Positions 20,254 to 58,639 of a stretch of DNA of 64,000 bases are shown piece after piece. Location: IMG/VR virus record IMGVR_UViG_3300042566_001492; one strand, given 5' to 3'. The position numbers and the translations under genes were made by a program. The notes under the pieces are model-generated. The model was not told where the DNA came from. It was given only the letters and a program-made list of their open reading frames with translations, and did no database searches. The stretch comes from an uncultured virus (IMG/VR IMGVR_UViG_3300042566_001492) (taxonomy: Duplodnaviria; Heunggongvirae; Uroviricota; Caudoviricetes). Numbering within the stretch: the first letter of the stretch is position 1; each line of letters begins with the position of its first letter.

Positions 20254-20514
20254 ATGTATTTAAACTCATCACCTTATATTAAATATTTAATATCCAATAT
20301 GGTTTTAATAAATGATTGGATAGAAAAGTTTGGAATAGGCGAAGATTCTGAAATTATCAAAAGTTCTGAAAAAATTGCATCTGAAATAAGTGACATTATG
20401 AATAGAATGGAAGAAATGGGAATTGAGGTAAGTGAAATACATAATGAGTCATATGATGTTGATAAACATATTAGAGACTTCAAGATAAAAAGAATACTAA
20501 ATAATGACAAATGA
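20254..20514 (+). CDS. Small hypothetical protein with C-terminal IRDFKIKRIL motif
   Basis: 86 aa, first of three overlapping co-oriented genes. Confidence 0.65.
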   Translation: MYLNSSPYIKYLISNMVLINDWIEKFGIGEDSEIIKSSEKIASEISDIMNRMEEMGIEVSEIHNESYDVDKHIRDFKIKRILNNDK

Positions 20515-20914
20515 GTATTTAGATAACATGATTCAGTTTCTTATGGATCACATCGATAGAGATGATAGAATAAGTGTTATAAAGAAAATGAAATACGGAT
20601 TTAGACACTATCATCTAATTCTATCAATTGATGAAGAAAACACAAAACTAAATAATAATCAAAATCACTATCATTTTAGAGAAAGTTTAGAAATAAATTT
20701 TGATAATAGAAATAAATGCATAGAAATAATGTCATACAATGAAGACTCAATGATTATTGAGGACAATGAATTACTTGAAAAATGGAATGAAGTTTTAGAA
20801 AATTATATAAATAAAAATATTGATGATAAAATTAAAGATTCTTTTGAGAAATCTTTAATGAAATGTCATAATAAATCTCTACACAGAGAATATCAAATGA
20901 AAAAATTATTATGA
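20504..20914 (+). CDS. Hypothetical protein
   Basis: 136 aa, overlaps neighbours. Confidence 0.65.
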   Translation: MTNEYLDNMIQFLMDHIDRDDRISVIKKMKYGFRHYHLILSIDEENTKLNNNQNHYHFRESLEINFDNRNKCIEIMSYNEDSMIIEDNELLEKWNEVLENYINKNIDDKIKDSFEKSLMKCHNKSLHREYQMKKLL

Positions 20915-21405
20915 ACCCATATAACCAGGAAGAAGTTGATAGAATTAACAAAGTTAAAGAAACAAATGATAAATTAGAAGATTTCTTTAATGGAAAGAGA
21001 GCCGAATGGAATGGTAATGTAGAACCTTTATTTAAGATTATAGCAATCGACTTAACAAAAAGTACATCTACTAAAGATATACTGGATTGTCAATCATTAG
21101 CACTTACTTTTAGACAACAAATAAACGAACAAATTAACTTCTTCCTAAATAAAAGAAGTAAAGAAACAACTAAAATTAAAAGACTTAGACAAGATAAATT
21201 TTTATTTTACGCAACTGGATTTGGAGTTAAAACAAACTTAGGTGAAAAGGGGATTTTAATTGATGGACATTTAGCGGAAAATGATAGAAGTTTAGAGTTA
21301 ATTGAATCTTATATTGAATTCCTAAGAGATACTGTTAAGAATTTAGAAAGTTTGAGTTATTCAATTAAGAATATGATTGAATTGTTAAACTATCTAGGTC
21401 GTTAA
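20911..21405 (+). CDS. uvsY: UvsY-like recombination mediator
   Basis: 164 aa, helical; C-terminal IEFLRDTVKNLESLSYSIKNMIE resembles T4-type UvsY C-termini; UvsW also in window. Confidence 0.55.
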   Translation: MNPYNQEEVDRINKVKETNDKLEDFFNGKRAEWNGNVEPLFKIIAIDLTKSTSTKDILDCQSLALTFRQQINEQINFFLNKRSKETTKIKRLRQDKFLFYATGFGVKTNLGEKGILIDGHLAENDRSLELIESYIEFLRDTVKNLESLSYSIKNMIELLNYLGR

Positions 21406-22517
21406 TCAACTTTTTTATTCCATTTAGTTTCGATTCCTAATGTCTTTAATGTAATATGTCCTTCTGCACAATCATCACATAGATTTTTTCTACCACCCCA
21501 AGTTTCAATTACATCACCATCACAGTCACTACAAATTTCATAGTCACCATAAGTTGATTGTAATATGTAACTATTTTTATCCGCAACATTAGAAACAGAT
21601 TTTTTATTACTACCTAAATAACAAAGAGTGTCTAAGAATGGAAACTCATTAAAATCACCATCTAATTTAACAGTAACAACACCATTCACATTAGATCCTT
21701 TATACATAAATCTTACATTATCTTTAATATGTGAGTTATTTATTTTTTTATAAAACCAACCTTGTGAGTCTGCAAAACTTTTGAATCTATTAACATCAGA
21801 ATCTCTATTTGTGTAAATTCTATCCATAAAATATTTAGAATCACAAGGAGACTCTTTAACCTTCCAAACAAGAGCACGACCATGAATCTTATCATTACCA
21901 TCTACGTATATTAATAACTTAACCTTATCTGGATTTTTTGTGTATAACTTAAAAAGTGATTTTTTTTCTTCTGCCATACAAGAACCACCAAGAGAACCAA
22001 CACTATTGTAATATTTGTCCATGTCATAATATTTAGCAATATCCTTACCACTAACTAACTTAAACTTTATACCAACTTCAACTTTTGATGACTTCCAAAC
22101 ATTAACAAATTCTTCTAATTCAGTATCAGTTAATTTTATATTTTTGAGACCATATAAATATCTAATAATTCTTCCGATTTTCATCTCTCCTCTACCAGGC
22201 ATCGTGTATGGAAAATCAGGATTCTCATCTTCGTCATAATCAGCTGATAAAACTTTTGAGTACATAGCAAAACTAACTTTATCATCTTCTGATGATTGGT
22301 CAAAGTAATTTTGTTTGATATCTTTATCTTCAAACCAATGTTCATCTTCAATCCAAGAAAGTATATTTTTAGAAATTTCACCGGCTTTACCAGATCCAGA
22401 GGATAATTCTTTTAACCTGAAAACAAAATCAGTGGTTCCATAGATATAACCCTCCAAAAGAGAAAACATTTCCCACTTAATTTTACTTTCTAAAAAACTC
22501 TCATATTTCTTTAACAT
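21402..22517 (-). CDS. SCM/RALVW/MDRIY-family protein, paralogue of 32783..34615, with C-terminal Zn finger
   Basis: Likely start 22517 (MLKKYESFLES); LGGSCM, GRALVW, FMDRIYT, FPFLDT; CSDC...CDDC. Confidence 0.7.
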   Translation of the reverse strand: MLKKYESFLESKIKWEMFSLLEGYIYGTTDFVFRLKELSSGSGKAGEISKNILSWIEDEHWFEDKDIKQNYFDQSSEDDKVSFAMYSKVLSADYDEDENPDFPYTMPGRGEMKIGRIIRYLYGLKNIKLTDTELEEFVNVWKSSKVEVGIKFKLVSGKDIAKYYDMDKYYNSVGSLGGSCMAEEKKSLFKLYTKNPDKVKLLIYVDGNDKIHGRALVWKVKESPCDSKYFMDRIYTNRDSDVNRFKSFADSQGWFYKKINNSHIKDNVRFMYKGSNVNGVVTVKLDGDFNEFPFLDTLCYLGSNKKSVSNVADKNSYILQSTYGDYEICSDCDGDVIETWGGRKNLCDDCAEGHITLKTLGIETKWNKKVD

Positions 22518-22542
22518 ATAACTATATATTATTTTATTTATC

Positions 22543-22902
22543 ATGAAATTTCGATTAACAGAAGATTGGACATATCAGACCACGTTTTTAGGAAAAACTA
22601 TCACTAAGACTCTTTACACAAAGGATACTTTATTTGAGCCTAATAAAGATGATAAATATGAAATTATTCAACCAACTGGTGAGATATCTTTGTTCAGTTT
22701 AGAAGATATAAAATCAATAGAATTCTTAGAAGAGATCATTGAAAAACAAGAAAACGATTTTGAAATAATAATTGAAGAGATTCCTGAAGATGATGATATC
22801 TTAGTTAGAAATTGGAGAATACAATTAGATGTTAAAACAACTCGTAAGAAATTAAAAGAAGTACAGAGAATTATAGAAGAATACGTAAAACCTATTTTAT
22901 AA
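22543..22902 (+). CDS. Hypothetical protein
   Basis: 119 aa ORF. Confidence 0.6.
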   Translation: MKFRLTEDWTYQTTFLGKTITKTLYTKDTLFEPNKDDKYEIIQPTGEISLFSLEDIKSIEFLEEIIEKQENDFEIIIEEIPEDDDILVRNWRIQLDVKTTRKKLKEVQRIIEEYVKPIL

Positions 22903-22903
22903 A

Positions 22904-23617
22904 CTATTTTTTCTTTTTCTTTTTTCTTGCTTTTGCTGCTTTCGCCTTAGTCCATAAATCAGCATCAGCTTTTCTAGCACCACCAGCACCAGTGATAAAA
23001 GAGTTCACACGACCCATTCCCCATTGATGTTGAGCAACACCCGGTCTGTGTCCTGCGTTCCAAGCTTGCATTCCTTTAGCGAAAACTTTTCTTAAAATTC
23101 CCATTGGAATTCCAGAAGCCTGAGACTTCTTTTTTAATGAAGCACTTACACCAGACTTTTTAGATTCATCTAAACCTTCCAACTCACCACCATCTAAACC
23201 AATAGCATAATTCAATTCATCAAGAATAGCATCTGTAGGTATCTCATCATCATCTTCATTATAGAACTTTCCTTCAGTTCCATACTCAGAGTAACTAACT
23301 AATGGAGTTCCTTCTTCAACTATTTCATTATATAATGAGATAATATCATCTGAATTAGCATCATCCGAATCTTCCAGACCAAGTTCCATTCTTACACCAC
23401 TATAGTGAGTTGGTATATGAATTTTACTTTCATTAAACATTTGTTGATTTTTTCTAATAGAATCAACTATTTGTTTAACTTTATCTAAACTAAAGTCTAA
23501 TTCAATAGCAATTTGCTCAATATCTAGACCTTCTTCTAGTAATTCTTTAACATCTTCGATATCAGCGTGTGTGAAGTCTTCAAATGTATATGTCTCAAAT
23601 GTTTTTAAGTATTTCAT
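22904..23617 (-). CDS. Acidic N-terminal region fused to a basic DUF5824-like C-terminal part
   Basis: MKYLKTFE start; SGIPMGILRKVFAKGMQAWNAGHRPGVAQHQWGMGRVNSF. Confidence 0.65.
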   Translation of the reverse strand: MKYLKTFETYTFEDFTHADIEDVKELLEEGLDIEQIAIELDFSLDKVKQIVDSIRKNQQMFNESKIHIPTHYSGVRMELGLEDSDDANSDDIISLYNEIVEEGTPLVSYSEYGTEGKFYNEDDDEIPTDAILDELNYAIGLDGGELEGLDESKKSGVSASLKKKSQASGIPMGILRKVFAKGMQAWNAGHRPGVAQHQWGMGRVNSFITGAGGARKADADLWTKAKAAKARKKKKKK

Positions 23618-23618
23618 A

Positions 23619-24053
23619 TTAATGTTTTAATTTTTCTAATCTTTTTATTACCTCATCGATATTTTGGTTCCAATCTTTTGATAATACTGATTTACCAAAC
23701 TCATTAAGATTACCAACACTATCTCTAATACCTTCTATCTCTGAAATTATATCATCACACTCATCATAGATATAAGTATCTTTAATATCTTCCCTTTCGT
23801 AACTATCAAAAAATTCTGGGTAATTTTCAACAAAAACGGCACCTGCACTTTCTTCTTCACCTGGTTTTGTTTTTACAATATATCCATTATCATAAATTTC
23901 CCCGGTTACTTCGTATCCAAGTTTTCTTGCTAAATCTTTTACCGTATCGTATCTTATATCAGCGTTTCTATTTGCAAATACAACTACTTCACCTTTCTTA
24001 TGAGAGGGAAATCTTGATACTAATTCTTCATTAAATTTTCTTAGGTGTTTCAT
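23619..24053 (-). CDS. Hypothetical protein with capsid-targeting-like N-terminus
   Basis: MKHLRKFNEE start; 144 aa. Confidence 0.65.
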   Translation of the reverse strand: MKHLRKFNEELVSRFPSHKKGEVVVFANRNADIRYDTVKDLARKLGYEVTGEIYDNGYIVKTKPGEEESAGAVFVENYPEFFDSYEREDIKDTYIYDECDDIISEIEGIRDSVGNLNEFGKSVLSKDWNQNIDEVIKRLEKLKH

Positions 24054-24055
24054 TA

Positions 24056-24622
24056 TTAATCTTTCCCCCCAAACATTTTTTGATAAGCTTTTGTAGCAGC
24101 TGATTTTTTAGTTTTTACTCTTTTGCCTTCACCACCTTTACCAGATTTATAATCAGCATCCCAGTCTTTTTTGTATTCTTTTTTACCTCTATAGGTATCA
24201 ATTTCTTTTTTCATTTGACTAGGATTTTTTGTTAAATATTTACCCGGTATTTTTTTACCTTTATATCTTTGAGAACGAGGTCTACCTTTTCTAGCCTCAG
24301 ATATTCCAAGTATGGACTGTATATCTTTTTCAATCATATCTAAACCAGCATCTACTGAATCAACTGGATTTCTAAAATCAATAGTATCTCCCGAAGTTTT
24401 TGTTAAGTTTAAGTCATCAATATCAAAATCATATTTTATAGAAAAATCGTTAACAGTAAAACTAACTACTAATTCATGGTCATTTTTGTTTTCCCATTCA
24501 TATAAAATATTATCATCAGAGATATTACTTATTAAGTCTTTCAACTCAGACATTTTAGCGTCAATAACACTCGGTGAATTTTCGACAAATTCTCTTATGA
24601 ACTGATTATATCTTTTTAACAT
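24056..24622 (-). CDS. Acidic N-terminal domain plus very basic C-terminal tail
   Basis: MLKRYNQFIRE start; tail KIPGKYL...VKTKKSAATKAYQKMF. Confidence 0.65.
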   Translation of the reverse strand: MLKRYNQFIREFVENSPSVIDAKMSELKDLISNISDDNILYEWENKNDHELVVSFTVNDFSIKYDFDIDDLNLTKTSGDTIDFRNPVDSVDAGLDMIEKDIQSILGISEARKGRPRSQRYKGKKIPGKYLTKNPSQMKKEIDTYRGKKEYKKDWDADYKSGKGGEGKRVKTKKSAATKAYQKMFGGKD

Positions 24623-24672
24623 ATAGTATATATTATTTTTAGTATTTCATTTATTCTACCTAAAATTTAACT

Positions 24673-24697
24673 AAACATTTGTAGGTCGAATGTATAT
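24673..24697 (+). promoter_or_regulatory. Putative early/middle promoter AAAC-N16-TATAT
   Basis: Same spacing upstream of primase, uvsW, slyD and the aaRS-like gene. Confidence 0.5.
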
Positions 24698-24704
24698 CAT
24701 GTAT

Positions 24705-25481
24705 ATGGCAAATAAAGTAAAATTTAAATTTATACCTATCAATCTTTCTGATTTCATATCAAAGATTGATGACTTATCAAAGATTGATGACACGATTAAG
24801 TTAAAGATTGACAATGAGAATATTCTTATGTATTCTATGTTGGGTGGTAATGTATTACTTGCCTTTAAGAATTTTTTAGTAAAAACATCAGACTATTTAG
24901 ACAATGTAGATTTTGACTATAAAATTGACTTAATTATTCCAAGCGCTAAAAAATTTGTTAAGAATCTAACATTTATAAAAGACCAATCATCTGTATCATT
25001 AGATATTTCTTACAAAGAGTCTCCAGATGATGATGAACTTTTTTTAGCCAGATCTTTTCAGATTACTTCTGGTAAATTTAAAGTAAATTGGTTAGCAGGA
25101 GAACACTATGAAATGAGAGATATTGATAAAAATTCTTTAACCACTCGATTAGATTTAAGAAATAAAAAGTGGTCCTTTTCAATCAAAAATGAAGATTTCG
25201 TAGATATAAAAAAACTATCATCAATCAACTCAGAAAGAGTTATTTCAATAATGGTTACTAAAGGAAATGTAGTTGTTTCAGAGAAATCAGCTTGGGAATT
25301 AGAGATAGATGATTTAGATGATGATAGAAGTGCTAGTTTAATATTAAATAAAAGATTCTTAGGATGTATAAATGATAAACTGACAAGAGTAGACTTTCAT
25401 ATATTTGATACATTCATGTTAGTAAAAGATATAGACTCAAATTTAATGTTGAGTTTTGAACAAGATTTCTCAGATGATTAA
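24705..25481 (+). CDS. Sliding clamp-like protein (gp45/PCNA fold)
   Basis: About 260 aa, two alpha/beta halves, clamp-like N-terminus (FISKIDDLSKIDDTIKLKIDNENI), in the same run as the polymerase; likely start 24705. Confidence 0.55.
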   Translation: MANKVKFKFIPINLSDFISKIDDLSKIDDTIKLKIDNENILMYSMLGGNVLLAFKNFLVKTSDYLDNVDFDYKIDLIIPSAKKFVKNLTFIKDQSSVSLDISYKESPDDDELFLARSFQITSGKFKVNWLAGEHYEMRDIDKNSLTTRLDLRNKKWSFSIKNEDFVDIKKLSSINSERVISIMVTKGNVVVSEKSAWELEIDDLDDDRSASLILNKRFLGCINDKLTRVDFHIFDTFMLVKDIDSNLMLSFEQDFSDD

Positions 25482-26004
25482 GAAAAGTAATTATAAAAAA
25501 AAGACTAGACATAAAATTAATTCAGACATAACCTACTCTGAATTAAGATTAATATCCACTGAAGGTATGGTAGTTATCTCTCTTCAAGACGCTCTTATCA
25601 GAGCTAAAAAAGAAGATAAGGATTTAATTATGATTAATGAGAATCAAAATCCACCTATCGTTAGAATCGAAGACTATAATAAGTTTCTTTATGATTTAGA
25701 TAAATTAGAAAAAGAAAGAAAGAAAGCATCAAATAAGTCACAACTCAAAGAGATTCAATTAAGTGCTTCGATTTCGGATAATGATATTAAAACAAAATCG
25801 AAAAAGGCTATAGAATTTTTAGAAGATGGTGATAAAGTAAAAGTAACACTCTTAATGAAGGGAAGAGAAAAAGCACATCCTGAAAGAGGTGAGTTAGTTA
25901 TATTAAAATTCACAGAATCTTTGTCACAAGTTGGATCACCTGAAAGTCTTCCAAAATATGAGAACGGAAAATGGATTATTATGTTGAAACCAAAGAAAAA
26001 GTAA
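25474..26004 (+). CDS. infC: Translation initiation factor IF-3
   Basis: IN..I...ELRLI, ALIRA....DLI, PPIVRIEDYNKFLY, KEIQL...I..ND...K.....FLEDGDKVKV....GRE. Confidence 0.92.
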   Translation: MIKKSNYKKKTRHKINSDITYSELRLISTEGMVVISLQDALIRAKKEDKDLIMINENQNPPIVRIEDYNKFLYDLDKLEKERKKASNKSQLKEIQLSASISDNDIKTKSKKAIEFLEDGDKVKVTLLMKGREKAHPERGELVILKFTESLSQVGSPESLPKYENGKWIIMLKPKKK

Positions 26005-27440
26005 TGAGTAAAGAAGAAAAGTTAAAAAAAATTGAAGAGTTAAAAAGAAAAGCTTCTGAATTAAAAAAAGAAGTTGATTACTATAACGCTCTACAACTCG
26101 CACTAAAATTAGTACTGAATGGTAGTTATGGTGCCTTTGCCACTTCATACTTTATTCTTTATAATAATCACGTCGCTGGAACAATTACAGCACAAGGTAG
26201 AGACCTTACAAGAACAATGGATAAAGTCAATGAAGATTATTGGTACAAACAATGGCATAATGATCACGAACTACACTATCTATTAGGAGTTAAAAATGTA
26301 ACTTCAATAAACAAGTCAGAAAATGTCAGTATTTACGCAGATACAGACTCTTTATTCGTTTCATTTAAACCAGCAATAGACCATTGCACATGGGAGAATT
26401 TACATATTAATGATGACTACTTAGACTTTTTAGATAAAAAGTTCATCATACTCACACCAGACACAGATTTTAAGTATAAAAGTTCTAATTTAGTAGGAAT
26501 AGCACATAACGTTTCAGATTTAGAAGAATTACTTAAAAATGATTATGACACTCTTATATTTGACGGCCATTATGTTAAAGATAGAAGAATTAATAAAATG
26601 ATGGAAGATGGAGTATTTACTTCTGAGATAATCTGGAATTGGTCTAATGAAACAGACTTTATACAAGGAATGGACTTTTTCAGATACGCTGGATATTTCA
26701 AGAAATGTTTAGAAGAATACGCAGGTTCTTTTGGAGTTGAAAATAAAGAAGACTTTGAGCTTGAAAGAATTTCAGAATCAATCATCAACATCGCAAAGAA
26801 AAAGTATATTCAACATATCTTATTTGAGGATGGAATACCTTATGAAAGATTAAATTATATCTACCCAAAGGGAGTAGAACTTGTTAGATCCTCTACACCA
26901 GCATTCGCTCGTGATAAAATTGTTGGAATTGTTAAGTATCTTTTCTCACATCCGGATACTTTCAACATCAAAGACTTATTAAAGTTGGTAAAACAGTTAA
27001 GAAAAGAATTTGAATTGGCTGATATTGATGATATCTCAATGCAGTCATCTTGTTCTAACTATGAAATAAAGGTTCTTAATGACAAAACTTTACCTTTGCA
27101 GTTTGTTTCTGGTGCTCACTTTGCGGTAAAGTCAGCTGCTCATCATAACTACTTACTTATTAAAAACAAAGAGTATCAACAAAAGTATGAATTCATTAAA
27201 TCAGGAGCTAAGATTAAATATTATGTTTGTAAAGATAAATCAGTAACGGATATGTTTGCTTATACCAGAGGTAGTTTCCCACATGAGTTTGCACCACCAA
27301 TTGACTTTGATGAGCAGTTTGAGAAATCAATCTTATCTCCTATTAATTCAATTATTGCACCACTTGGATTACCAGAAATAACTAAAAGATTGAGTGTTGT
27401 TATGGATATATTTGGTGGTTTTGGAAGAGGTGGATTTTAG
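26004..27440 (+). CDS. Family B DNA polymerase, C-terminal subunit of a split gp43
   Basis: Motif B QLALKLVLNGSYG, ITAQG, motif C YADTDS, KKKY, KGVELVRSSTP; no exonuclease domain or motif A; TAATG coupling to infC. Confidence 0.9.
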   Translation: MSKEEKLKKIEELKRKASELKKEVDYYNALQLALKLVLNGSYGAFATSYFILYNNHVAGTITAQGRDLTRTMDKVNEDYWYKQWHNDHELHYLLGVKNVTSINKSENVSIYADTDSLFVSFKPAIDHCTWENLHINDDYLDFLDKKFIILTPDTDFKYKSSNLVGIAHNVSDLEELLKNDYDTLIFDGHYVKDRRINKMMEDGVFTSEIIWNWSNETDFIQGMDFFRYAGYFKKCLEEYAGSFGVENKEDFELERISESIINIAKKKYIQHILFEDGIPYERLNYIYPKGVELVRSSTPAFARDKIVGIVKYLFSHPDTFNIKDLLKLVKQLRKEFELADIDDISMQSSCSNYEIKVLNDKTLPLQFVSGAHFAVKSAAHHNYLLIKNKEYQQKYEFIKSGAKIKYYVCKDKSVTDMFAYTRGSFPHEFAPPIDFDEQFEKSILSPINSIIAPLGLPEITKRLSVVMDIFGGFGRGGF

Positions 27441-28275: not shown

Positions 28276-28506
28276 ATGAAAGAAGAAACTTTATATCAAG
28301 ATTATTTAAACTATTTAGACTGGAGATTAAAAGAAGGACAAATTAATAAAGGAAAGTACTCTTTAATGAAGATATCAAATACTGGTTTTGTTGATTTTAA
28401 GAAAACATTTGAGAATGATGAACATTTTAGACAAAAAGTACTAAAAATAAAAATCTCTGAAATAAGAGATAAAAAAATTGATGACATCTTTGATGACTTT
28501 GATTGA
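28276..28506 (+). CDS. Small hypothetical protein with C-terminal IRDKKIDDIF motif
   Basis: 76 aa ORF. Confidence 0.65.
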   Translation: MKEETLYQDYLNYLDWRLKEGQINKGKYSLMKISNTGFVDFKKTFENDEHFRQKVLKIKISEIRDKKIDDIFDDFD

Positions 28507-28867
28507 AGAAATACCATTTCAAGATAATTTAATAAGATTCTATTCAGGTATAGACTTCGATAGATTAATTAAACATCCTAAAGATGGAAGTGATGGATTC
28601 ATATTTTGTTTTATAAAAAATTGGAAAAACGAAGTTGACTCACATAATAGAAACAGTAAGCTGAAATCTATAATTGAGGATATCAATTATGAAAAATTTC
28701 AATGGGAATCAATTAACAATGACTTTATAAGTATTTATCAAACAGAAGGAATCGGATATGATGTTGTTTATAGAACAATAAAAAATAAAATAATTAACCA
28801 GCAATTTCCAGATCAACCATGGATTCCAATAAATAGTATATCAACAGGTGCCTGGAAAATTAAATAA
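28478..28867 (+). CDS. Hypothetical protein (internal NRNSKLKSII motif)
   Basis: ORF; start uncertain (28478, 28481 or 28493). Confidence 0.6.
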   Translation: MMTSLMTLIEEIPFQDNLIRFYSGIDFDRLIKHPKDGSDGFIFCFIKNWKNEVDSHNRNSKLKSIIEDINYEKFQWESINNDFISIYQTEGIGYDVVYRTIKNKIINQQFPDQPWIPINSISTGAWKIK

Positions 28868-32237: not shown

Positions 32238-32498
32238 ATGAATCTAAAAGAAATTTACGAATTGGGAATTGATGTTAAAGACTCTCAAATTCCACAAGAG
32301 TGGAAAGAAAGTTTTAATAGTTTTATCTTTGGTCAAACTTGCCAGGCTGAATTAAATGAAGATGGTAGTGTAAAAGATTTTATCTATTACTCTCATGATT
32401 TTAGATTTTGGTATCACCAGAACCAAGAAGCAATTGAAAGAGATATTAAAATTGATGAAGTATGCAAAAAGGAAGATTCTTATATGAACAAAAACTAA
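32238..32498 (+). CDS. Small hypothetical protein with ERDIKIDEV motif
   Basis: 86 aa ORF. Confidence 0.6.
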   Translation: MNLKEIYELGIDVKDSQIPQEWKESFNSFIFGQTCQAELNEDGSVKDFIYYSHDFRFWYHQNQEAIERDIKIDEVCKKEDSYMNKN

Positions 32499-32794
32499 AA
32501 GACCATCCAGAAATCGGTGTTTATGGTATTTTTGATACTAGAAAAGTCAGTTGGTCTTATTATGTGATTTCATTTGAGAATGTTGTATCTGGAGGTATTA
32601 GATTGTCACCAGAAATCTGTGGATACTCAAGTAACGCATCATACGAAACTGTTGAAAAGCAAGGTAAAAAATTTAATACAAAGGAAGAGAGTATTAAATT
32701 TATACAAGATTATAAAATAAAGTGGGAAACCGGTTCTAATAATACAACTGAGGAAATTAGAGACCAAAAAATAGACGAACTTTTAGAGAGTTAA
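32462..32794 (+). CDS. Small hypothetical protein with C-terminal IRDQKIDELL motif
   Basis: 110 aa ORF. Confidence 0.65.
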   Translation: MQKGRFLYEQKLKDHPEIGVYGIFDTRKVSWSYYVISFENVVSGGIRLSPEICGYSSNASYETVEKQGKKFNTKEESIKFIQDYKIKWETGSNNTTEEIRDQKIDELLES

Positions 32795-34648: not shown

Positions 34649-34677
34649 AAAAAGTCCTCTTATTTTGAGGACTTTTT
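34649..34677 (-). terminator. Intrinsic terminator
   Basis: aaaaagtcctc-ttatttt-gaggacttttt hairpin overlapping the stop of 34660..35730. Confidence 0.6.
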
Positions 34678-35730
34678 CTTTTTCTTATCTCCTAAGATAT
34701 CCTTAGATGTCTTAGCTAAATATTTTGTTTGTCTTATGAACTGATTATAAAAATCATCTTGTCTGTTTATTTGACTAACTGGATTTAATCTACCAGCTTG
34801 ATTTCCAAATTGTGTACAAGTTAATACTGAGTTTTCCAAACCTGTAGCTTGGTGTGATGTCTCAGTAATTTCTTCTTCACCTCTTCTAACAACCTTTTTA
34901 GTTATGTTAAGTGGATCTTTAGTTCCTTTGACAACAATTTCAACAATATTAGGAAATTGTTCATTATGTAGACTATCTACTAGATCCTCAATATGTTTAA
35001 CATTCTTTAAGTCATCATCGGAAAATCCTACCTTTGCTTCTTTACCAAGTCTTTGAGCATAGTCATTGACTTTTTGTTTAAATAGTAAAAGAGCATCTTC
35101 TTTTGCTTTTTCTGGATTAGCAGGTGAACCACCTCTAGATGGAGCAGACACACCTACAAACTCACAACTATCTAAGTACTTTCGTACAAGTTGATTTTGA
35201 GATGGAATTCCACTAAGAATTCTTTCAGACTCTGTTTCCATATCGTAGAAATACTCAAACTTTCTAAGATTATTATACATCTCAAATAATTGAGATTCAG
35301 TTAGAACATTATCAATAATCCACTCAACACCTTTTTTCATAGATGGTGACTCGTGACCTCTTGCAGTAATGATGGCAAAAATAGATCCATTTACAAGACA
35401 TTCAATAAAATCATCCCAAGCTGGACCTAATTTTTGTTGTGATATAGCGGTTCTAACATCTTCTAAGAAGGCATTATCACCTCTTTCTCCCTGGTCTCTG
35501 AACTCGATAAAGGCAACATCATAGTCGATTCGCCAATTTTCAGTATCAGTTCTAACTTCTGCAAATTCAGCAGTAGAAACCGGTTGTTCAATCCACTCAT
35601 CACCAACTTTTTTTTGCATGATAATTTTTGTTGGCATCATAAGTATGTTATCATCCCAATCAAATGCATAGTATAATAAGTAATCAGAATCTTTACTTTC
35701 TGATATGAACTGACCAAACTTCTTTACCAT
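34660..35730 (-). CDS. HAD-superfamily phosphatase-like protein
   Basis: Motif I YAFDWDDNI, motif II IITARGH, Lys in EKAK, motif IV GFSDDD; N-term MVKKFGQFISES. Confidence 0.7.
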   Translation of the reverse strand: MVKKFGQFISESKDSDYLLYYAFDWDDNILMMPTKIIMQKKVGDEWIEQPVSTAEFAEVRTDTENWRIDYDVAFIEFRDQGERGDNAFLEDVRTAISQQKLGPAWDDFIECLVNGSIFAIITARGHESPSMKKGVEWIIDNVLTESQLFEMYNNLRKFEYFYDMETESERILSGIPSQNQLVRKYLDSCEFVGVSAPSRGGSPANPEKAKEDALLLFKQKVNDYAQRLGKEAKVGFSDDDLKNVKHIEDLVDSLHNEQFPNIVEIVVKGTKDPLNITKKVVRRGEEEITETSHQATGLENSVLTCTQFGNQAGRLNPVSQINRQDDFYNQFIRQTKYLAKTSKDILGDKKKKKSSK

Positions 35731-36174: not shown

Positions 36175-36831
36175 ATGAAAGACCTAAATAAATTCTTACT
36201 AAGCCAATCTATAAGTAGTACTCTACAATTGGATTATTTCAATAAACTATCAAAAAAAAGTAATCTAACATCATTCGATGCTAGTGGATTACCATTAGAT
36301 GTATTTTCTAAACTACTTGACGAAAGAATTATATTTCTTTCAACTGAAGTTGATTCAGATGTTTGTAACATAATTAAAGCTCAAATGATGTATTTAGACT
36401 CTCTTAGTGATGATGATATTTCAATATACATCGATTCACCAGGTGGATCTGTTTATTCTGGATTAGGTCTATTAGATGTTATGGACTTTGTTAATTGTGA
36501 CATCTCAACAGTAAACACTGGACTAGCGGCTTCTATGGCAGCAGTAATATTGTGTAGTGGTAAAAAAGGTAAACGTAGAGCTCTTAAAAGAAGTAGAACG
36601 ATGATACATCAACCACTAGGATATGGTGGGTGGGTTCAACAAGCTTCTGATATGGAAATAGAAGCAAAAGAAATAAACTCACTTAAGAAAGAGTTATACG
36701 AGATTATATCTGATAGAACAAATCAATCTTACGATAGAGTTTATAAAGATGGTGATAGAGATTATTGGATGACTGCACAAGATGCTAAAAAATATGGAAT
36801 GATTGACGAAATCATAACACATAGAAAATAA
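36175..36831 (+). CDS. clpP: ATP-dependent Clp protease proteolytic subunit
   Basis: DVFSKLLDERIIFL, YIDSPGGSV, GLAASMAA (Ser), MIHQP (His), DRDYWM (Asp). Confidence 0.95.
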   Translation: MKDLNKFLLSQSISSTLQLDYFNKLSKKSNLTSFDASGLPLDVFSKLLDERIIFLSTEVDSDVCNIIKAQMMYLDSLSDDDISIYIDSPGGSVYSGLGLLDVMDFVNCDISTVNTGLAASMAAVILCSGKKGKRRALKRSRTMIHQPLGYGGWVQQASDMEIEAKEINSLKKELYEIISDRTNQSYDRVYKDGDRDYWMTAQDAKKYGMIDEIITHRK

Positions 36832-37285: not shown

Positions 37286-38902
37286 ATGAAATTTAGATAC
37301 GATAAATCTTCAGAAGAATTAGTAGTAACAACAGCAACTAGAATTGAATACCACCAATTAGGACTGTGGTTGACTAGACATGTAAAAGGATACAGATACA
37401 TGCCTGCATTTAAGATGGGTGTCTGGAATGGTCAACAAACTTATTTTAAAAATGGAAGAATAAATGTTGGTCTTTGGAAAGAAGCAATGAAAGGTTGTAA
37501 AGAAATTGAAGCTTCTTTCATACTAGAAAATAAAGATGAGTTTCCACTAAACAGAGATATAACATTAGAAAAAGTTCAAGAGTTCTGTGAAGAATTCTTT
37601 AAGTTTCATAAGGTTAGAACCAAATCAGGAGAATGGATTCCATTCATGCCATATGACCACCAGATAGAGTCAGCTTATAAAATACTTAAGAATAGATATT
37701 GTATGGCTGAAGTTGCAACATCAGGTGGTAAATCACTTATTATATCTATTGTTATGTTTTATACTCTAAAACATATTGATCCTAAGGCTAAGTTTCTTAT
37801 TATTGTTCCTTCAATAACACTTGTTACTCAATTTTATGATAATATTATGGAATACAACTGGGGAATTAACAATCTCTTAGAAATGAGAGAAAAGAAAATT
37901 GATTCTATACTAAATCCAGAAGCTAAATATTCTCCTTGTGATGTTAGAGTTGAAGAAGTTATGTCAGAAAGACCTAGAAAATTCTCAGGGGCTCAAGATC
38001 CAAATGTTTATATTGGCACCTATCAGTCTCTTGAAAAGTGGCCAAAAGAATTCTTTCAACAATTTCACACTGTTGTAACAGATGAAGCACACGGAGCTAA
38101 AGCCAAAACAATAACAACAATTTTACAAAAAACATTTGGACATGCTTACTCAAGATTTGGAGTATCTGGTACTTTTCCAGATGATGATACCTGTGAAATA
38201 TTAACAATACAATCAGTTTTAGGTCCTAAAATTACCGAAGTCTCAGCTAACGAACTTAAAGAAAAGGGTATTATTACTCCGATGGAAATCAGATGTGTTA
38301 TAATGAATCACAATGATAAGGAATTTGATGATAGAATACAGATAATCAAAAGGGGTGGAAATGGTAAAGATGCATTTGAGCTTGAAAAAGCATATATTCA
38401 CGTTTCGGATAAGAGATTAGAATTTATTAAAAAAATAGTAGAAAAGTGCGACTCAAACACACTACTTTTATTTCATACAATTGAGTATGGTCAAGCAATA
38501 TTCAACAAACTACAAAATGACATATCTGATAAAGAATTCTTTTATATAGATGGTGAGGTAAGTGGTAAAAAGAGAGAAATAATTAAAAAAGAAATGGAGG
38601 TCACTGATGGTAAAGTAAAAGTACTAGTAGCTTCATACGGAACACTATCAACCGGAGTTTCAATAAATGCTATATTCAATGTTATTTTTACAGACTCTTT
38701 TAAATCCGAACAAATTATTATACAGTCTATAGGTAGAGCACTTAGACTACATTCTGATAAAAAGAAAGCTAACATATTTGACTTAGTTGATGTGTTTGAC
38801 GCTAACAATATGTCAAATATTTTATTCAGACATTTTAAAGAAAGAGAAAAGTTTTATATTAAAAGACAATATCCTTATAAAGTTATAAAAATTAATCTTT
38901 AA
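37286..38902 (+). CDS. uvsW: UvsW-like SF2 DNA helicase
   Basis: PYDHQ, ATSGGKS, IIVP, TDEAH, GVSGT, STGVSI, QSIGRALR. Confidence 0.92.
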   Translation: MKFRYDKSSEELVVTTATRIEYHQLGLWLTRHVKGYRYMPAFKMGVWNGQQTYFKNGRINVGLWKEAMKGCKEIEASFILENKDEFPLNRDITLEKVQEFCEEFFKFHKVRTKSGEWIPFMPYDHQIESAYKILKNRYCMAEVATSGGKSLIISIVMFYTLKHIDPKAKFLIIVPSITLVTQFYDNIMEYNWGINNLLEMREKKIDSILNPEAKYSPCDVRVEEVMSERPRKFSGAQDPNVYIGTYQSLEKWPKEFFQQFHTVVTDEAHGAKAKTITTILQKTFGHAYSRFGVSGTFPDDDTCEILTIQSVLGPKITEVSANELKEKGIITPMEIRCVIMNHNDKEFDDRIQIIKRGGNGKDAFELEKAYIHVSDKRLEFIKKIVEKCDSNTLLLFHTIEYGQAIFNKLQNDISDKEFFYIDGEVSGKKREIIKKEMEVTDGKVKVLVASYGTLSTGVSINAIFNVIFTDSFKSEQIIIQSIGRALRLHSDKKKANIFDLVDVFDANNMSNILFRHFKEREKFYIKRQYPYKVIKINL

Positions 38903-53657: not shown

Positions 53658-54047
53658 TTAGTAGTCTCGTATGATTTGTGAATTAGAAAATTTTGATAAA
53701 TTTCCGAGAACATCATCCATTACTTCTGGATTTTTTCTGAACTCGTTATAAAAGATTAAAACATTGAAATTATTTTCACCAAGTATCTTTTTTAGATTTA
53801 GAAGTTTTTCGATTGAAAATTGATTATCAAAGTCAGGAATGTAATAAATATCTTTCTTTTTGTCTATAGCTTGTTGAATTTTATTAAATATTAAAATTTT
53901 GAGATAAGTTTTATCGATGGTAAAATCCACCTCTTCTTCGTCTATAATTTTTTTTATATCAATTATATACTTATTCTTTATACGATTCACCTTGATAAAC
54001 TTATCAAACTTCTTTCTTGTTTTACAATAGACACAAAAGAATTCCAT
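53658..54047 (-). CDS. Hypothetical protein
   Basis: 129 aa ORF. Confidence 0.6.
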   Translation of the reverse strand: MEFFCVYCKTRKKFDKFIKVNRIKNKYIIDIKKIIDEEEVDFTIDKTYLKILIFNKIQQAIDKKKDIYYIPDFDNQFSIEKLLNLKKILGENNFNVLIFYNEFRKNPEVMDDVLGNLSKFSNSQIIRDY

Positions 54048-55548: not shown

Positions 55549-55937
55549 AAAATATAAAATACTTTGAATCTGTTGATGACTACTCAGAATGGGGAATCGA
55601 ATTACAAACAATAGAGGAAATGTTTTATGATATTTCCGATTTAGGCTGGTTGATAAGAGTAAATCCATCAAAAAGATTAGTTCGCCAAAATTCAATATCC
55701 GATAATATTGAATTTGAGTTTCAGTACTATATTAAAGTTGTTATTTATAAACCATTCAATAGTATAGATAGAGATAAAATTAGACAGGAATTAAATCAAT
55801 TAATTAAGTCAACTATTTTTATAGAAACATTGGAAGAAGTTAAATTAAGATTAGAATTCTTTGATTATGAAATTTCAGACACTGATACCAATAATGGTCG
55901 TAATTTAGAAATTACTATAACAAAAAAGAGTGACTAA
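55545..55937 (+). CDS. Hypothetical protein with capsid-targeting-like N-terminus
   Basis: MKNIKYFES start; ATGA overlap. Confidence 0.6.
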   Translation: MKNIKYFESVDDYSEWGIELQTIEEMFYDISDLGWLIRVNPSKRLVRQNSISDNIEFEFQYYIKVVIYKPFNSIDRDKIRQELNQLIKSTIFIETLEEVKLRLEFFDYEISDTDTNNGRNLEITITKKSD

Positions 55938-55953
55938 TTAGTCACTCTTTTTT
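55922..55953. terminator. Bidirectional terminator (perfect palindrome)
   Basis: aaaaaagagtgactaattagtcactctttttt between convergent genes. Confidence 0.8.
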
Positions 55954-57555
55954 TTATTTATTATTGAACTTCTCAAATTTTGCAATTATCTTTCGATTGT
56001 CTGTATCGATTTCCATTTCATTTGGCTTCATCGCTTTGTCATAACCAGCTTGAATAAATTCATCTCTTGTGACATCTTTGGTATTTCCATCTTTATCTTT
56101 TATTTGGTAATCAAAATTTTCTTCGACTATGTTTCCCTCCTTATCTAATTTAGTTACATCAGCAACGTTCATTACTTTATTGTCCATCGCTGGTTCTTTA
56201 GATTTATCTTCTGATGGTTCACTCCATTTTGTTTTAAGTGGAAAATTTACTCCGGATAAATCAGTGATTATCTTATTCTTAAACATATCTATAAATCTAA
56301 CTCCTTCATAAGGAGCAACTTCACAAACACCAAAGATATTCGAGATAGAACCAATACCACCATGCCCACCAGAAACTGTTATCTCATCCTGACCAATTGA
56401 GGTATCTGGATTATGATATCCTAAGTGAGATTGGAAATTTCTTAACAATCCTGTCATATAAGCTCCTAAATCATTTACCGGTTCACCAGTTTTAAGAATC
56501 GGTAAAGTCTCCATCTGGTCAATCTTAGAGTATGAACACACTTGTAATGTACCACCATATTGAAGTAAAACAAATTTTGGTTCTTCGGATATAAGACCAT
56601 CCTTAAAATCATTAGAGATGATTGTTCTGGCTCTTAAAGCATTCGCCCAAGTTCCAGTTGGAATAAAAGCTAAATCACCAATTAACTGATAACCATCGAG
56701 TTTAATCGTACCATTTCTACCAAAATCTTTAAGAAATCTTTGCAATGTGGTATATTTTTTCTTAGCTACATTTTGACCTCTTGTTCTTTTAGCCATTTGA
56801 GCTAATCTCCACTCAGAATCAGCTAAGAAATCTTTTTTCTGACCACTTCTTGGAAAAACATTGTGTTCAGGATATACTTTTTTCATAACATTGAAAATAG
56901 AATAAATTGAAGCATCAGGACAGTTATGTATAACAGATATTAAGGTTTTGTGATCAGATCTTTTTAAGAATTGATTAAACGCAGCTGCGAATTCTAATCT
57001 TTTATTGTCTGATTTTTTTATATCAACGATATTGAAATCTAAAAGCCTACTCCAATCAACATTGTATTCTTGATACTTAGCTGCATCAATCATATCAATT
57101 ACTGAAAGAGTTAACTCGTCTTGAGGAACTCCTAAATTTTGACAAATCGCTTCATAAGCCGAAGCTGTTTTTTTCTTTTGTATTGGGGAAGATTTATATT
57201 TATCTAACTCAAATTCAGTAAATGAACCATGATGATCTAAGTAATAATCAATATACTCATCTCTTTCATCACCTGGCATGTTAGCAAAGTCTACAACAAC
57301 ATTTATCAATTTAGGATCAACTGTAGTGTATTTCCAACCCTCAGAGTAATTAATTATACCATACTTAACAATCTCAAATCCAGAGTTCTGTAGATATTTC
57401 TTTACCTCGATTGCTGAGAATATACCGTCCATATCATCGTGTGTATAAAGAGCAACCTTTTTACCGTCTTTACCTTTTTTAAGCCAGTATTCCTCATTCT
57501 TTGGTAGTCGAGGAGAAGCCTCTTCATTTATGAACTGAACATATTTCTTTAGCAT
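55954..57555 (-). CDS. DHH/DHHA1-family phosphoesterase
   Basis: YTHDDMDGIFSA, VVDF, LDHH, SGGH; N-term MLKKYVQFINEE. Confidence 0.8.
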   Translation of the reverse strand: MLKKYVQFINEEASPRLPKNEEYWLKKGKDGKKVALYTHDDMDGIFSAIEVKKYLQNSGFEIVKYGIINYSEGWKYTTVDPKLINVVVDFANMPGDERDEYIDYYLDHHGSFTEFELDKYKSSPIQKKKTASAYEAICQNLGVPQDELTLSVIDMIDAAKYQEYNVDWSRLLDFNIVDIKKSDNKRLEFAAAFNQFLKRSDHKTLISVIHNCPDASIYSIFNVMKKVYPEHNVFPRSGQKKDFLADSEWRLAQMAKRTRGQNVAKKKYTTLQRFLKDFGRNGTIKLDGYQLIGDLAFIPTGTWANALRARTIISNDFKDGLISEEPKFVLLQYGGTLQVCSYSKIDQMETLPILKTGEPVNDLGAYMTGLLRNFQSHLGYHNPDTSIGQDEITVSGGHGGIGSISNIFGVCEVAPYEGVRFIDMFKNKIITDLSGVNFPLKTKWSEPSEDKSKEPAMDNKVMNVADVTKLDKEGNIVEENFDYQIKDKDGNTKDVTRDEFIQAGYDKAMKPNEMEIDTDNRKIIAKFEKFNNK

Positions 57556-57606
57556 AATAATAATTTATTTTATAACGTATATATAAAAAAATCACAAATA
57601 AAAATG

Positions 57607-57978
57607 CTACAAAATAACGTTTATTTTTAGGTCTTTTTCTAAGTCACTAATTCCCAAAATCGAATTGATTTTGTTATCTCTCATAGATTGTTTGTCCTTT
57701 GACATTACTATTGTGTTATCAGTTATCATTAAATCAACGTAACACTCATAACCACAAAAATCACCAACCTTATACACACCATCATTCACCACAACATGAC
57801 AAGGATTAAAACTTTTATGACACTCTATGATGTTGTATACCGAAATTGGCATTATTATGAAATTATGTTTCTTTTTCATATTTTTAATTTCACTCCACAT
57901 TTTTGCTGACTTTAGTAAATACAATTCTTTATCAGTTTCTGTTACTCTTAATGGAATATCCGACAAATCAATTATCAT
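57607..57978 (-). CDS. Small hypothetical protein with MRDNKINSIL motif
   Basis: 123 aa ORF. Confidence 0.6.
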   Translation of the reverse strand: MIIDLSDIPLRVTETDKELYLLKSAKMWSEIKNMKKKHNFIIMPISVYNIIECHKSFNPCHVVVNDGVYKVGDFCGYECYVDLMITDNTIVMSKDKQSMRDNKINSILGISDLEKDLKINVIL

Positions 57979-58639
57979 TTAGTAAACTACTTATTTTTTT
58001 CTCTCTAATTTTACCTAAGCTTCTAACAACAATCTTAACCGATTTATAATCACAGTGATAAAATCTATACTTTACTATATGTTTATTTATTTCATAATCT
58101 TGTATAATCTCATATGTCATATTTTGTAATGACCAGACTAAACTTTGTATTGGATTATCTGTTAAAAAAATCTCATATTCATCTATACTGTCTTTAATAA
58201 TAGGACTAAAGTAAGCAGAAACATCACTACCATAAGAAGATAACTTAATGCGCTGATTGAAATAACTCGGTAAAAAGTAACTTCCAAATTCTCCTTCTGA
58301 ATGATTTGATATATTTAAATTTAAATTAGAATTATTTGAGTAGAATAAATATTTTGAATTAACATTCATATCAAGTAATTGATAAATATCCTTCAGATTA
58401 TTAGAGGCTATTGAAAACTCCTCTGACTTCTCCATCATCTCACTCAGTGAATCATTATAAATATCCAATAAAACATCTCTCATTAAGTCAGGCGAAAATG
58501 AATTATGTTTAACATTCATAGTCATTGTTCTTTCTTCAGAAGATATAACATCACCAGAATATAAAAAACTTATATTTTGTAATAGATCTTCTAAAGTTTT
58601 TTTATAATCGGAAAAGTCATAGTTTTTTATTAAAGACAT
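57968..58639 (-). CDS. Hypothetical protein with C-terminal IREKKISSLL motif
   Basis: 223 aa ORF. Confidence 0.6.
   Translation of the reverse strand: MSLIKNYDFSDYKKTLEDLLQNISFLYSGDVISSEERTMTMNVKHNSFSPDLMRDVLLDIYNDSLSEMMEKSEEFSIASNNLKDIYQLLDMNVNSKYLFYSNNSNLNLNISNHSEGEFGSYFLPSYFNQRIKLSSYGSDVSAYFSPIIKDSIDEYEIFLTDNPIQSLVWSLQNMTYEIIQDYEINKHIVKYRFYHCDYKSVKIVVRSLGKIREKKISSLLNDN

Follow-up and report, generated by a model that had tools for sequence, protein, structure and literature searches.

A short helix on many small, unrelated proteins of a megaphage lineage is probably a docking handle for a common partner

A stretch of 64,000 nucleotides from an uncultured virus (IMG/VR record IMGVR_UViG_3300042566_001492), which we call the window, contains several small genes which raise a simple question: Why should proteins with no other visible similarity share a short peptide, R-[DEN]-x-K-I-x-x-[IL]-[LF], in most cases near their C-terminus? 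A first-pass annotation, made from the sequence alone, suggested that this tag is an addressing helix which docks varied proteins on a common partner. We have followed it in the window and in related genomes. The tag is carried by about 10–13% of the proteins of this megaphage lineage, mostly small, fast-evolving orphans. In our opinion it is a portable docking helix read by one common, co-evolving partner, a reading to which we would give a probability of roughly 0.8. The assignment of this partner to a ClpC-like unfoldase of the phage, acting with its ClpP, is much more tentative.

To judge from its genes, the window is a fragment of a megaphage of about 630 kb, whose closest public relatives are LR745206.1 and LR756502.1 (634,780 and 642,428 bp; uncultured phages). 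Its polymerase fragment has 77% and 73% identity to these two genomes, and positions 103–155 kb of LR745206 are collinear with the window, in inverted orientation. The two are described as freshwater and subsurface megaphages (PMC9723777). The window is AT-rich, with a G+C content of about 29–35% past the first 8 kb. Its gene set is T4-like: the C-terminal part of a family-B DNA polymerase, IF3, ClpP, PPK2 and an HNH endonuclease, together with a UvsW-like helicase, a primase, a UvsY-like protein, and baseplate hub and lysozyme-type proteins. Four complete relatives have been compared, using crude gene sets formed by the greedy choice of the longest open reading frames (ORFs) of at least 40 amino acids, which cover 94–96% of each genome. 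We have searched for the tag with the regular expression R[DEN].K[IL]..[ILVMF][LFICVM], which was applied to all 220 window ORFs of at least 40 amino acids.

The tag is far too frequent to be attributed to chance. The 990 genes of LR745206 have 93 matches to the regular expression, compared to a mean of 2.4 (maximum 7) after shuffling, and 80 of these matches are found at most 10 residues from the C-terminus (shuffled mean 0.22, maximum 2), so the C-terminal enrichment suspected in the first-pass annotation is real. A small tag profile gives 104 sites with a score of at least 8 bits in this genome and none in shuffled decoys; in LR756502 it gives 92. An unbiased pattern search finds R..K-h..h in 116 of 907 C-terminal 16-mers of LR745206, against 3 of 907 interior 16-mers. 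The window itself has 8 matches in 66 genes (mean 0.185, maximum 2, in 200 shuffles), five of them at most 10 amino acids from the C-terminus (mean 0.005, maximum 1), which answers the doubt, raised in that annotation, that the tag might simply reflect amino acid composition. Shadow ORFs are practically free of tags: no match is found in the 154 shadow (non-gene) ORFs of the window, and only 4 in those of LR745206.

These instances give the tag the core h-R-[DEN]-x-K-[IL]-x-x-[IL]-[LIF], with 0–10 residues between it and the stop codon. This is the case for 85 of 101 instances, while the other 16 are further internal. The number of residues after the tag (number of instances in brackets) is 0 (9), 1 (29), 2 (18), 3 (7), 4 (6), 5 (8), 6 (4), 7 (2), 9 (1) or 10 (1), and a single D, N, K or E is the commonest continuation. 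About 17 LR745206 proteins end in the variant ...R-D-x-K-L-x-x-L-G-I. We regard the tag as a portable helix, amphipathic and with two to four turns, which is often N-capped and has an invariant Arg and a Lys in the middle of its aliphatic face. Both residues are invariant in our alignment of 79 segments, but these segments were selected by a regular expression which fixes R and K. Carriers are short (median 108.5 amino acids, compared to 142.5 for all genes), and their genes are often neighbors: There are 24 adjacent tagged pairs in LR745206, against a mean of 10.5 (maximum 19) in 1000 shuffles.

The proteins which carry the tag have practically nothing else in common, as the first-pass annotation had stated for the window. 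When the tag is removed, 99 carriers form 95 BLAST clusters, and three of the four clusters with two members are orthologue pairs between the window and LR745206. Of the 107 LR745206 proteins with a tag, no more than 3 have a Pfam match (E ≤ 1e-4): two helicases with internal tags and one protein with a UVR motif. SHOCT (PF09851) is matched by none of the 107 at this threshold, nor by any of nine window proteins at E ≤ 1. Pfam and PHROGs searches with the eight small tagged proteins of the window give no family of known function.

Codon choice at the R, D, E, K and first Ile of the tag is that of the whole genome (chi-square 0.0–1.9), and the only synonymous deviation is a mild ATA bias in the codons for Ile 7. 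It is thus the peptide and not the DNA which is constrained. A signal at the DNA level (promoter, ribosome site or repeat) has been considered and rejected: Synonymous sites are free, Ile/Leu and Asp/Glu/Asn alternate at conserved positions, and shadow ORFs are nearly empty. The tag is retained between window and LR745206 orthologues with just 34–54% identity. Among 18 homologues of the protein encoded by 57968..58639, with identities as low as 36%, R212 does not vary, and K210 and I216 hardly do; in that encoded by 57607..57978, R100, N102, K103, I107 and L108 are invariant in 22 homologues. Among 137 loosely tagged LR745206 proteins, 50 have a homologue in LR756502, which is tagged in 34 cases. 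The carriers themselves turn over fast, with a median identity between LR745206 and LR756502 of 41%, compared to 52% for all genes. Judging by these comparisons, the tag is under selection at the protein level and outlasts the bodies to which it is attached.

Sister clades have their own versions of the tag. The LR745206-type profile gives 84 sites in LR756502, 2 in LR756504, one in LR756500, a weak one in Lak-A2 and none in LR756501. The variant of LR756504 is R-K-x-[RIK]-I-[ED]-x-L-[LI], which is present in 91 tails but in only 2 interior windows. In LR756501 there are about 26 tails of the form ...K-R-T-K-L-[IM]-D-x-M-L, which are longer and more alike, and are found in three tandem arrays; without the tag, this set of 26 still forms 22 clusters. 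The arginine and two aliphatic positions are common to the versions of all clades. The change from RD.. to RK.. may be seen in one orthologue pair, while another LR756504 orthologue retains a tag like that of LR745206. Thus the tags of unrelated proteins change together between clades, as predicted if they share a single co-evolving reader. Another tail, ...D-P-Y-G-E-E-x-W, is abundant in LR756501, with 107 occurrences, 39 of them at most 12 residues from the C-terminus, and it seems to be the main tag of this genome.

The tag is not restricted to C-termini. It is found near the N-terminus in a few proteins and in loops of two helicases, which agrees with the proposal of a portable helix that docks varied proteins. 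The window gene 37286..38902 (+) codes for a UvsW-like helicase (Pfam DEAD/ResIII/Helicase_C), with an internal MREKKIDSIL at amino acids 201–209 (DNA 37886–37912), 329 residues before its end. When compared to T4 UvsW, residues 192–237 are unaligned against residues 182–203 of the T4 protein: The tag is contained in these approximately 24 extra amino acids. An alignment of five orthologues shows the insert (14–16 residues) in the window, LR745206 and LR756502, with a gap in LR756504 and LR756501; in LR756502 this insert is already decaying. A second insert with a tag is found in a DinG-like helicase of LR745206 and LR756502. These helicase inserts have 12–16 amino acids and are found in this clade only.

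Some carriers are derived from head proteins. The last tag of the window, IREKKISSLL (DNA 57980–58006, from amino acid 212, with 3 residues after it), belongs to gene 57968..58639 (−), which codes for 223 amino acids without a sequence-family match in Pfam or PHROGs. Its AF2 model (pLDDT 81, pTM 0.79) is that of an HK97-fold, capsid-protein-like protein to which the tag helix has been appended. Foldseek gives 19 PDB matches with E ≤ 0.001 (best E 4e-6), and all the matches listed are capsid, capsid-associated particle (phage or satellite) or encapsulin entries. When compared by VIA-align, the model matches T4 gp23 of the unexpanded head with Z 9.9 (174 residues aligned, rmsd 3.5) and HK97 Prohead II with Z 9.4; the best 50 structures are viral capsids, encapsulins and further shell proteins of the HK97 type, or a phage-related protein. 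In the model, residues 208–221 with the tag form the final helix, directly after the last strand. Since structural alignments to capsids end near residue 208, this helix is an appendage to the fold. The tagged protein of LR745206 207176..207907 (243 amino acids) aligns to residues 344–530 of this phage's own gp23-like capsid protein (E 2e-17), and a tagged protein of 83 amino acids consists of three copies of a 14-residue repeat from the prohead protease-scaffold fusion (707 amino acids).

This fusion (LR745206 198546..200669 and its orthologues) contains a scaffold with at least 12 tandem repeats of 14 residues, Y-S-E-Y-[IL]-A-E-N-L-D-K-N-I-x, followed by an acidic stretch and a C-terminal helix ending in R-F-K-x-I; the repeats are nearly identical in four megaphage genomes. 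Its N-terminal domain is presumably a prohead protease, a label which we have given by eye. The neighbor of the HK97-fold gene, 57607..57978 (−), codes for 123 amino acids with the tag MRDNKINSIL (DNA 57655–57681, from amino acid 100, 15 residues before the stop). A Gp23-like capsid fold was suggested for this protein by the protein Atlas (TM by query 0.65). We take it as a lead which our own AF2 model did not confirm: This model has a pLDDT of only 58.8, and Foldseek finds nothing with E ≤ 0.001.

The other tags of the window are found in orphans encoded on the + strand. IRDFKIKRIL (DNA 20473–20499, from amino acid 74, with 4 residues before the stop) is part of gene 20254..20514, which codes for 86 amino acids and overlaps the following gene by 11 nt; the syntenic gene of LR745206 (142684..143121) has a nearly identical tag and a body which BLAST cannot align. 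IRDKKIDDIF (DNA 28465–28491, from amino acid 64, with 4 residues before the stop) belongs to 28276..28506 (76 amino acids), whose LR745206 orthologue keeps the tag at 54% identity. The overlapping gene 28478..28867 (129 amino acids) has an internal NRNSKLKSII (DNA 28649–28675, amino acids 58–66, with 63 residues after it); the tag is found at amino acid 57 of its LR745206 orthologue (41% identity). ERDIKIDEVC (DNA 32439–32465, from amino acid 68, with 10 residues after it) is found in 32238..32498 (86 amino acids), and is kept in the LR745206 orthologue (48% identity). IRDQKIDELL (DNA 32759–32785, from amino acid 100, with 2 residues before the stop) is found in 32462..32794 (110 amino acids), for which BLAST gives no orthologue in LR745206 and the protein Atlas only an unnamed viral cluster.

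Seven of the eight matches in the window, all except that of the helicase, had already been listed in the first-pass annotation, and they are where it placed them. A weaker copy which it also listed, HREYQMKKLL (DNA 20882–20908, in gene 20504..20914 (+), an orphan of 136 amino acids), is not matched by the regular expression. The LR745206 orthologue (36% identity) ends in ...YRDYQMEKIFKKDERI. Since the stretch YRDYQMEKIF is found at this end, the copy is probably a decayed tag. The next gene, 20911..21405, codes for a UvsY-like protein (PHROGs E 2.5e-5). The four loci are indeed pairs of adjacent genes, which overlap in every case, and none of the eight tagged proteins has an N-terminus of the capsid-targeting type, M-x-K-K-[YF]-x-x-F, when inspected by eye.

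This N-terminal peptide is a tag in its own right. In the form M-x-K-K-[YF]-x-x-F-[IL]-x-E it is found in PPK2, a DHH-type protein, a DUF5824 protein and several orphans; the window genes are those starting at 17832, 19024 and 29432, together with 22904..23617, 23619..24053, 24056..24622, 34660..35730 and 55954..57555. It is present in 64 of the 990 LR745206 proteins, against 6.7 in shuffles. We take it to resemble the T4 capsid targeting sequence, as it has an h-x-E end of the cleavage type. The N- and C-terminal tags do not exclude each other significantly in LR745206, where both are found in 4 proteins (6.6 expected).

The two tags are found in genes with different promoters. A motif which we have found de novo, AATATATA, is located 10–40 nt upstream of the start codon in 174 of 990 LR745206 genes, compared to 40 after shuffling. 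It precedes the genes for the portal, the protease-scaffold fusion, the terminase, UvsX and a sigma factor, and is probably the phage's own middle or late promoter. In the window it is found, for example, upstream of 17832, 24056, 29432 and 38939. The octamer usually given for T4 late promoters shows only a small peak upstream of genes, and has been replaced by this motif in our analysis. Another motif, TA..TTTG, is found upstream of 87 LR745206 genes, against 34 after shuffling. It corresponds to the −7 element of Bacteroidota sigma-70 promoters (PMC12632263).

Each gene was assigned to a promoter class by the nearest motif upstream within its run of genes on the same strand. These are motif calls, phage-type (AATATATA) or host-type (TA..TTTG). 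In LR745206, 14 C-tagged genes are phage-type and 42 host-type, compared to 281 and 182 for other genes (Fisher p = 5e-7); the values for LR756502 are 6 and 37, compared to 309 and 187 (p = 5e-10). Genes with the N-terminal tag follow the AATATATA class (40 phage-type and 10 host-type in LR745206, 55 and 5 in LR756502). The bias of C-tagged genes remains when only genes of at most 150 amino acids are considered: 11 and 34 against 117 and 95 for the others in LR745206 (p = 2e-4), 6 and 27 against 113 and 99 in LR756502 (p = 1.5e-4). C-tagged genes also differ from N-tagged genes in LR756504 (p = 8e-5). Of the tagged pairs in the window, 32238/32462 is the only one with its own host-type motif (TAnnTTTG, at most 60 nt upstream of 32238..32498). 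The split in promoter class sets the C-tagged genes apart from head genes, and the cohort appears to belong with the presumptive early genes.

Which protein could read the tag? The 124 LR745206 proteins with homologues in all three other compared genomes were taken as candidates. They include Hsp70, DnaJ, a double-AAA+ Hsp100, gp32, UvsX, a sigma factor, head proteins and many unknowns. A second J-domain protein was considered as a clade-specific reader and dropped, as it consists only of a J domain and a zinc-finger part of DnaJ. No link to the tag was found for the two most conserved small proteins of this core as possible hubs: One we take to be gp55-like, though it has no family match, and the other is a 129 amino acid protein of the baseplate region. 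A protein of this length and region in the window (53658..54047) starts with CxxC and matches no family. It is better conserved than any other window protein, with 91% identity to LR745206 and 48–50% to distant megaphages. The 14-residue repeats of the scaffold were considered as a multivalent reader. They are nearly identical in all four genomes, so they do not vary along with the tag variants. The N-terminal protease part of the fusion has a homologue in Lak-A2, a genome with almost no tags, and the LR756500 match also covers the repeat and C-terminal part (query 260–664).

The leading candidate is the Clp machine of the phage, as co-occurrence, a tagged neighbor gene and the early, fast-evolving character of the cohort point to it; we regard the assignment as tentative, and it could well be wrong. 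A Clp ATPase was among the partners proposed in the first-pass annotation, and remains a candidate. The window gene 36175..36831 (+) codes for a ClpP homologue (Pfam CLP_protease, E 1.3e-64), which scores 257 bits with NCBIfam ClpP models, against 80 bits for the model of the ClpP-related head-maturation protease. The phage Hsp100 is below all NCBIfam equivalog cut-offs (ClpB, 876 bits compared to 1232 required; ClpA, 755 compared to 993). In LR745206, LR756502 and LR756504 it lacks a Clp_N domain, and its second AAA+ module contains a loop with the sequence G-V-G-F or S-V-G-F. A VGF-type loop is the means by which ClpC and ClpX dock on ClpP. The Hsp100 of LR756501 is ClpB-like, with an N domain and without a VGF loop. 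There are two ClpP homologues in LR745206, three in LR756502, three in LR756504, none in LR756501 and two in Lak-A2. Lak-A2 has no Hsp100 or ClpC-like homologue, and has a single weak match to the tag profile. If LR756500 is left aside, the ClpC-like and ClpP pair is present in exactly those three of five compared genomes which have at least 90 tags.

The neighbor of the ClpC-like gene is also tagged. Proteins of a single family (about 115–140 amino acids) are encoded directly upstream on the same strand, both in LR745206 and in 25 of 80 loci from IMG/VR. The best conserved stretch of this family is a tag, ...E-R-R-[DE]-E-I-I-D-E-[IL]-L-N-E..., with the ending ...ERRDEIIDEILNE... The ClpC-like ATPase gene itself (LR745206 423224..425329) is widespread on large viral contigs, with 578 relatives in IMG/VR, and is found in a conserved block with a CYTH-like gene, a gene coding for 201 amino acids and a tagged one coding for about 130. 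In this clade, the N-terminus of the ClpC-like protein contains a conserved acidic stretch; LR756504 lacks both this stretch and Clp_N.

In this mechanism, the tag helix would be a handle by which about 100 proteins dock onto one shared partner, the ClpC-like Hsp100 unfoldase without N domain and with a VGF loop, working with the phage ClpP. The tagged proteins might be substrates for timed clearance, or else adaptors which bring their bound targets to the protease. The latter version may be extended to a phage-encoded system of targeted proteolysis, where some 100 early proteins would be exchangeable adaptors plugging baits into ClpC-like/ClpP; variable baits, including capsid-protein-like and scaffold-like ones, might then be directed to host sensors or rival phages. 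We consider this extension a long shot. If true, it would be a bacterial-virus counterpart of the F-box/BC-box logic exploited by eukaryotic viruses.

Several observations count against a Clp reader or against the promoter argument. The co-occurrence is based on five genomes, three of which are kin, and LR756501 has about 26 tags without ClpP or a VGF loop. As 10–13% of genes are tagged, a tagged neighbor of the ClpC-like gene is not rare by chance. The folded N domain which reads adaptors in known ClpC and ClpA is absent from the ClpC-like protein of this clade. Neutral in this respect is the co-folding of this protein, with an alignment of 32 sequences, and the product of 28276..28506, for which ipSAE was 0.00 in both runs, which had no controls. 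The distance between tag and terminus varies from 0 to 10 residues, and internal copies are found in helicase loops; a classical terminal degron for ClpP, another suggestion of the first-pass annotation, does not fit such a pattern. Host-type promoter calls are noisy (87 genes, compared to 34 shuffled), and the bias between C-tagged and other genes is not significant in LR756504 (p = 0.31). Finally, several carriers are head-derived (the HK97-fold protein of 57968..58639, the gp23 fragment and the mini-protein with scaffold repeats), and therefore point to the procapsid rather than to a protease.

Such a procapsid tag would attach its carriers to the scaffold or to the inside of the major capsid protein, so that they are built into heads and delivered with the DNA. 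It has the best structural precedent: C-terminal capsid-binding helices with an essential Arg. The carriers whose origin can be recognised are head-derived, as in the three cases just named, and this lineage has a T4-like head module as well as N-terminal tags which resemble the T4 capsid targeting sequence. However, C-tagged genes avoid the AATATATA class to which portal, scaffold, terminase and N-tagged genes belong (14 against 42 and 6 against 37, as given above), no tag is found in the structural block of LR745206 (150–200 kb), the scaffold fusion ends in a different helix (...AIMERFKSI), and helicases would be an odd cargo. Removal of the tag by the head protease has also been considered and rejected: A site [LIVMF]-x-E at −4 to −2 is rare, before only 6 of 102 tags in LR745206 and 18 of 91 in LR756504. 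We think a procapsid tag unlikely. A hub of the host, for example RNA polymerase, the ribosome, or a host chaperone or protease, is a doubtful explanation as well. It agrees with a set of early-class genes which are small, fast-evolving and orphan (median identity 41% against 52%), and with tag variants which differ between clades that probably have different hosts, but it leaves the tags on the phage's own helicases and capsid-derived proteins unexplained.

A hub in the replisome, where the helix would bind the sliding clamp of the phage or the acidic tail of its gp32-type single-stranded DNA-binding protein (SSB), seems very unlikely to us. D-x-K-I-x-x-I-L does have the spacing commonly given for PIP-boxes, motifs which are also found at termini or in loops; two helicases are tagged; tagged genes of the window are found among those for a clamp candidate, the polymerase, primase, UvsY-like and UvsW-like proteins; and a basic helix might be a partner for the acidic-aromatic tails which are found in gp32, UvsX and the polymerase. 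In phages of the T4 type, the tail of the polymerase is its clamp-binding peptide. The polymerase fragment of the window (25971..27440), however, ends in ...SVVMDIFGGFGRGGF, an acidic-aromatic tail and not the tag, as do those of LR745206 and LR756502, and this speaks against the clamp as the partner, another proposal of the first-pass annotation. About 100 partners would be far above any known clamp or SSB interactome, and the clamp candidate (263 amino acids) is without a match in Pfam or PHROGs, and among solved structures at E < 0.1. There might also be no common reader at all: The tag could be a generic module for self-association or end-capping, or the last trace of one huge family of diverged paralogues. 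Clustering of tagged genes (24 adjacent pairs, 10.5 expected) and the three tandem arrays of LR756501, with longer and more similar tails, are what duplication would give, and SHOCT, to judge from its Pfam name, shows that diverse proteins may share a short module at their C-terminus. Yet carriers without their tags fall into 95 clusters from 99 proteins (22 from 26 in LR756501), bodies which include an HK97 fold, a scaffold repeat and helicases cannot be a single family, and none of 107 proteins matches SHOCT (E ≤ 1e-4). A plain coiled coil would not usually have an Arg in the center of its aliphatic face, and tags which are uniform within a genome but change together from clade to clade suggest that they share a constraint. 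A tag without a reader is thus hardly probable, and one common docking partner remains our preferred reading.

A few other features of the window should be noted. The family-B DNA polymerase is split: Gene 25971..27440, directly after the IF3 gene, codes for its C-terminal part only, and in LR745206 the exonuclease and N-terminal polymerase part is about 100 kb distant (listed at 232803..234344). The acidic-aromatic tails of the polymerase, UvsX and gp32 are of the form ..DIFGGF.., ..AEDIFG and ..DDFFADL. A protein of 2575 amino acids encoded by 1837..9564 is almost entirely made up of collagen triple-helix repeats (Pfam E 1.9e-275), and its gene is located in the only part of the window with a higher G+C content (about 45%). 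The region 59262..63806 contains a run of cell-like genes, coding for a protein of 238 amino acids whose start resembles a signal peptide, an FKBP/SlyD-type isomerase, a glycosyltransferase, a peptide deformylase and a protein like class II aminoacyl-tRNA synthetases. Among these, LR745206 has counterparts of the isomerase and, weakly, of the deformylase only.

Megaphage genomes consist mostly of orphan genes, and the tag sorts about 100 unknown proteins per genome into one functional cohort. A peptide of 15 residues containing it is a practical bait for the common hub. If this hub is the unfoldase-protease of the phage, the cohort would represent a virus-run system of protein turnover or targeting in bacteria; if it is the procapsid, there would be a second, scaffold-like code for cargo loading beside that of the T4 type, which could be used to load proteins into heads. 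The change of the tag as a set between sister clades is a natural experiment in the co-evolution of a motif and its reader. We have found no account of this tag in the literature searched, judged mostly by titles and abstracts, in agreement with the first-pass annotation, which knew of no described function. Surveys of jumbo phages mention genes for ClpP, ClpS, ClpA-like proteins and DnaK/DnaJ, and no such motif in the parts considered here (PMC7824862, PMC12619734).

Several known systems resemble the tag in some respects. The T4 capsid targeting sequence, for example, is one short peptide found on diverse, fast-evolving small phage proteins, many of them anti-defence, which serves as an address only (PMC3012670). 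As in the T4 proteins IPI–III and Alt, a short peptide is shared by diverse small proteins, and the head genes of the megaphage are T4-like. The T4 sequence, however, is N-terminal, is cut at h-x-E and marks head cargo, whereas the megaphage tag is C-terminal or found in loops (85 of 101 at most 10 residues from the end), is preceded by h-x-E in only 6 of 102 cases, and belongs to genes whose promoter class is not that of head genes. The N-terminal tag of the megaphage is a better counterpart.

Scaffolding proteins offer the best structural likeness. The scaffolding protein (SP) of phage 80alpha and CpmB of SaPI1 bind the capsid protein by a C-terminal amphipathic helix of 11 residues with a RIIK hook, and the R202K mutation is lethal (PMC5644958); P22 gp8 binds the N-arm of the coat protein through R293 and K296 (PMC9965877). 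These two residues have the same i, i+3 spacing as the R and K of the tag. In both cases we find a short C-terminal amphipathic helix with an essential Arg and Ile/Leu contacts, which may be swapped, as in the SP and CpmB tails. Nevertheless, scaffolding helices are found in one or two head-assembly proteins per phage, compared to about 100 early orphans here, and the scaffold fusion of the megaphage ends in another helix; the likeness is one of sequence and model.

In the degrons and adaptor tails of AAA+ proteases (ssrA, the SspB tail, ClpS), unrelated proteins are sent to one ATP-dependent protease by a terminal peptide which they share. These degrons are unstructured and are read at the very end of the chain, while the megaphage tag is helical, 0–10 residues away from the end, and also internal. 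Jumbo phages encode ClpP and ClpS (PMC7824862), and a ClpA-like gene is part of the core of another lineage of large Bacteroidota phages (PMC12619734). Clamp-binding tails, such as those of T4 gp43, gp33 and gp55 or the PIP-box, also join unrelated proteins to a ring by a peptide in a terminus or loop, x-x-aliphatic-x-x-hydrophobic-hydrophobic. They differ in that the polymerase has another tail here, the tag is aliphatic instead of aromatic, and its carriers are about tenfold more numerous. In summary, portable address peptides on phage proteins, as in T4, docking helices and degrons in general are already known. What appears to be new is the sequence of this tag, its scale (a tenth of the proteome), its placement on early orphans and in helicase loops, and its clade variants.

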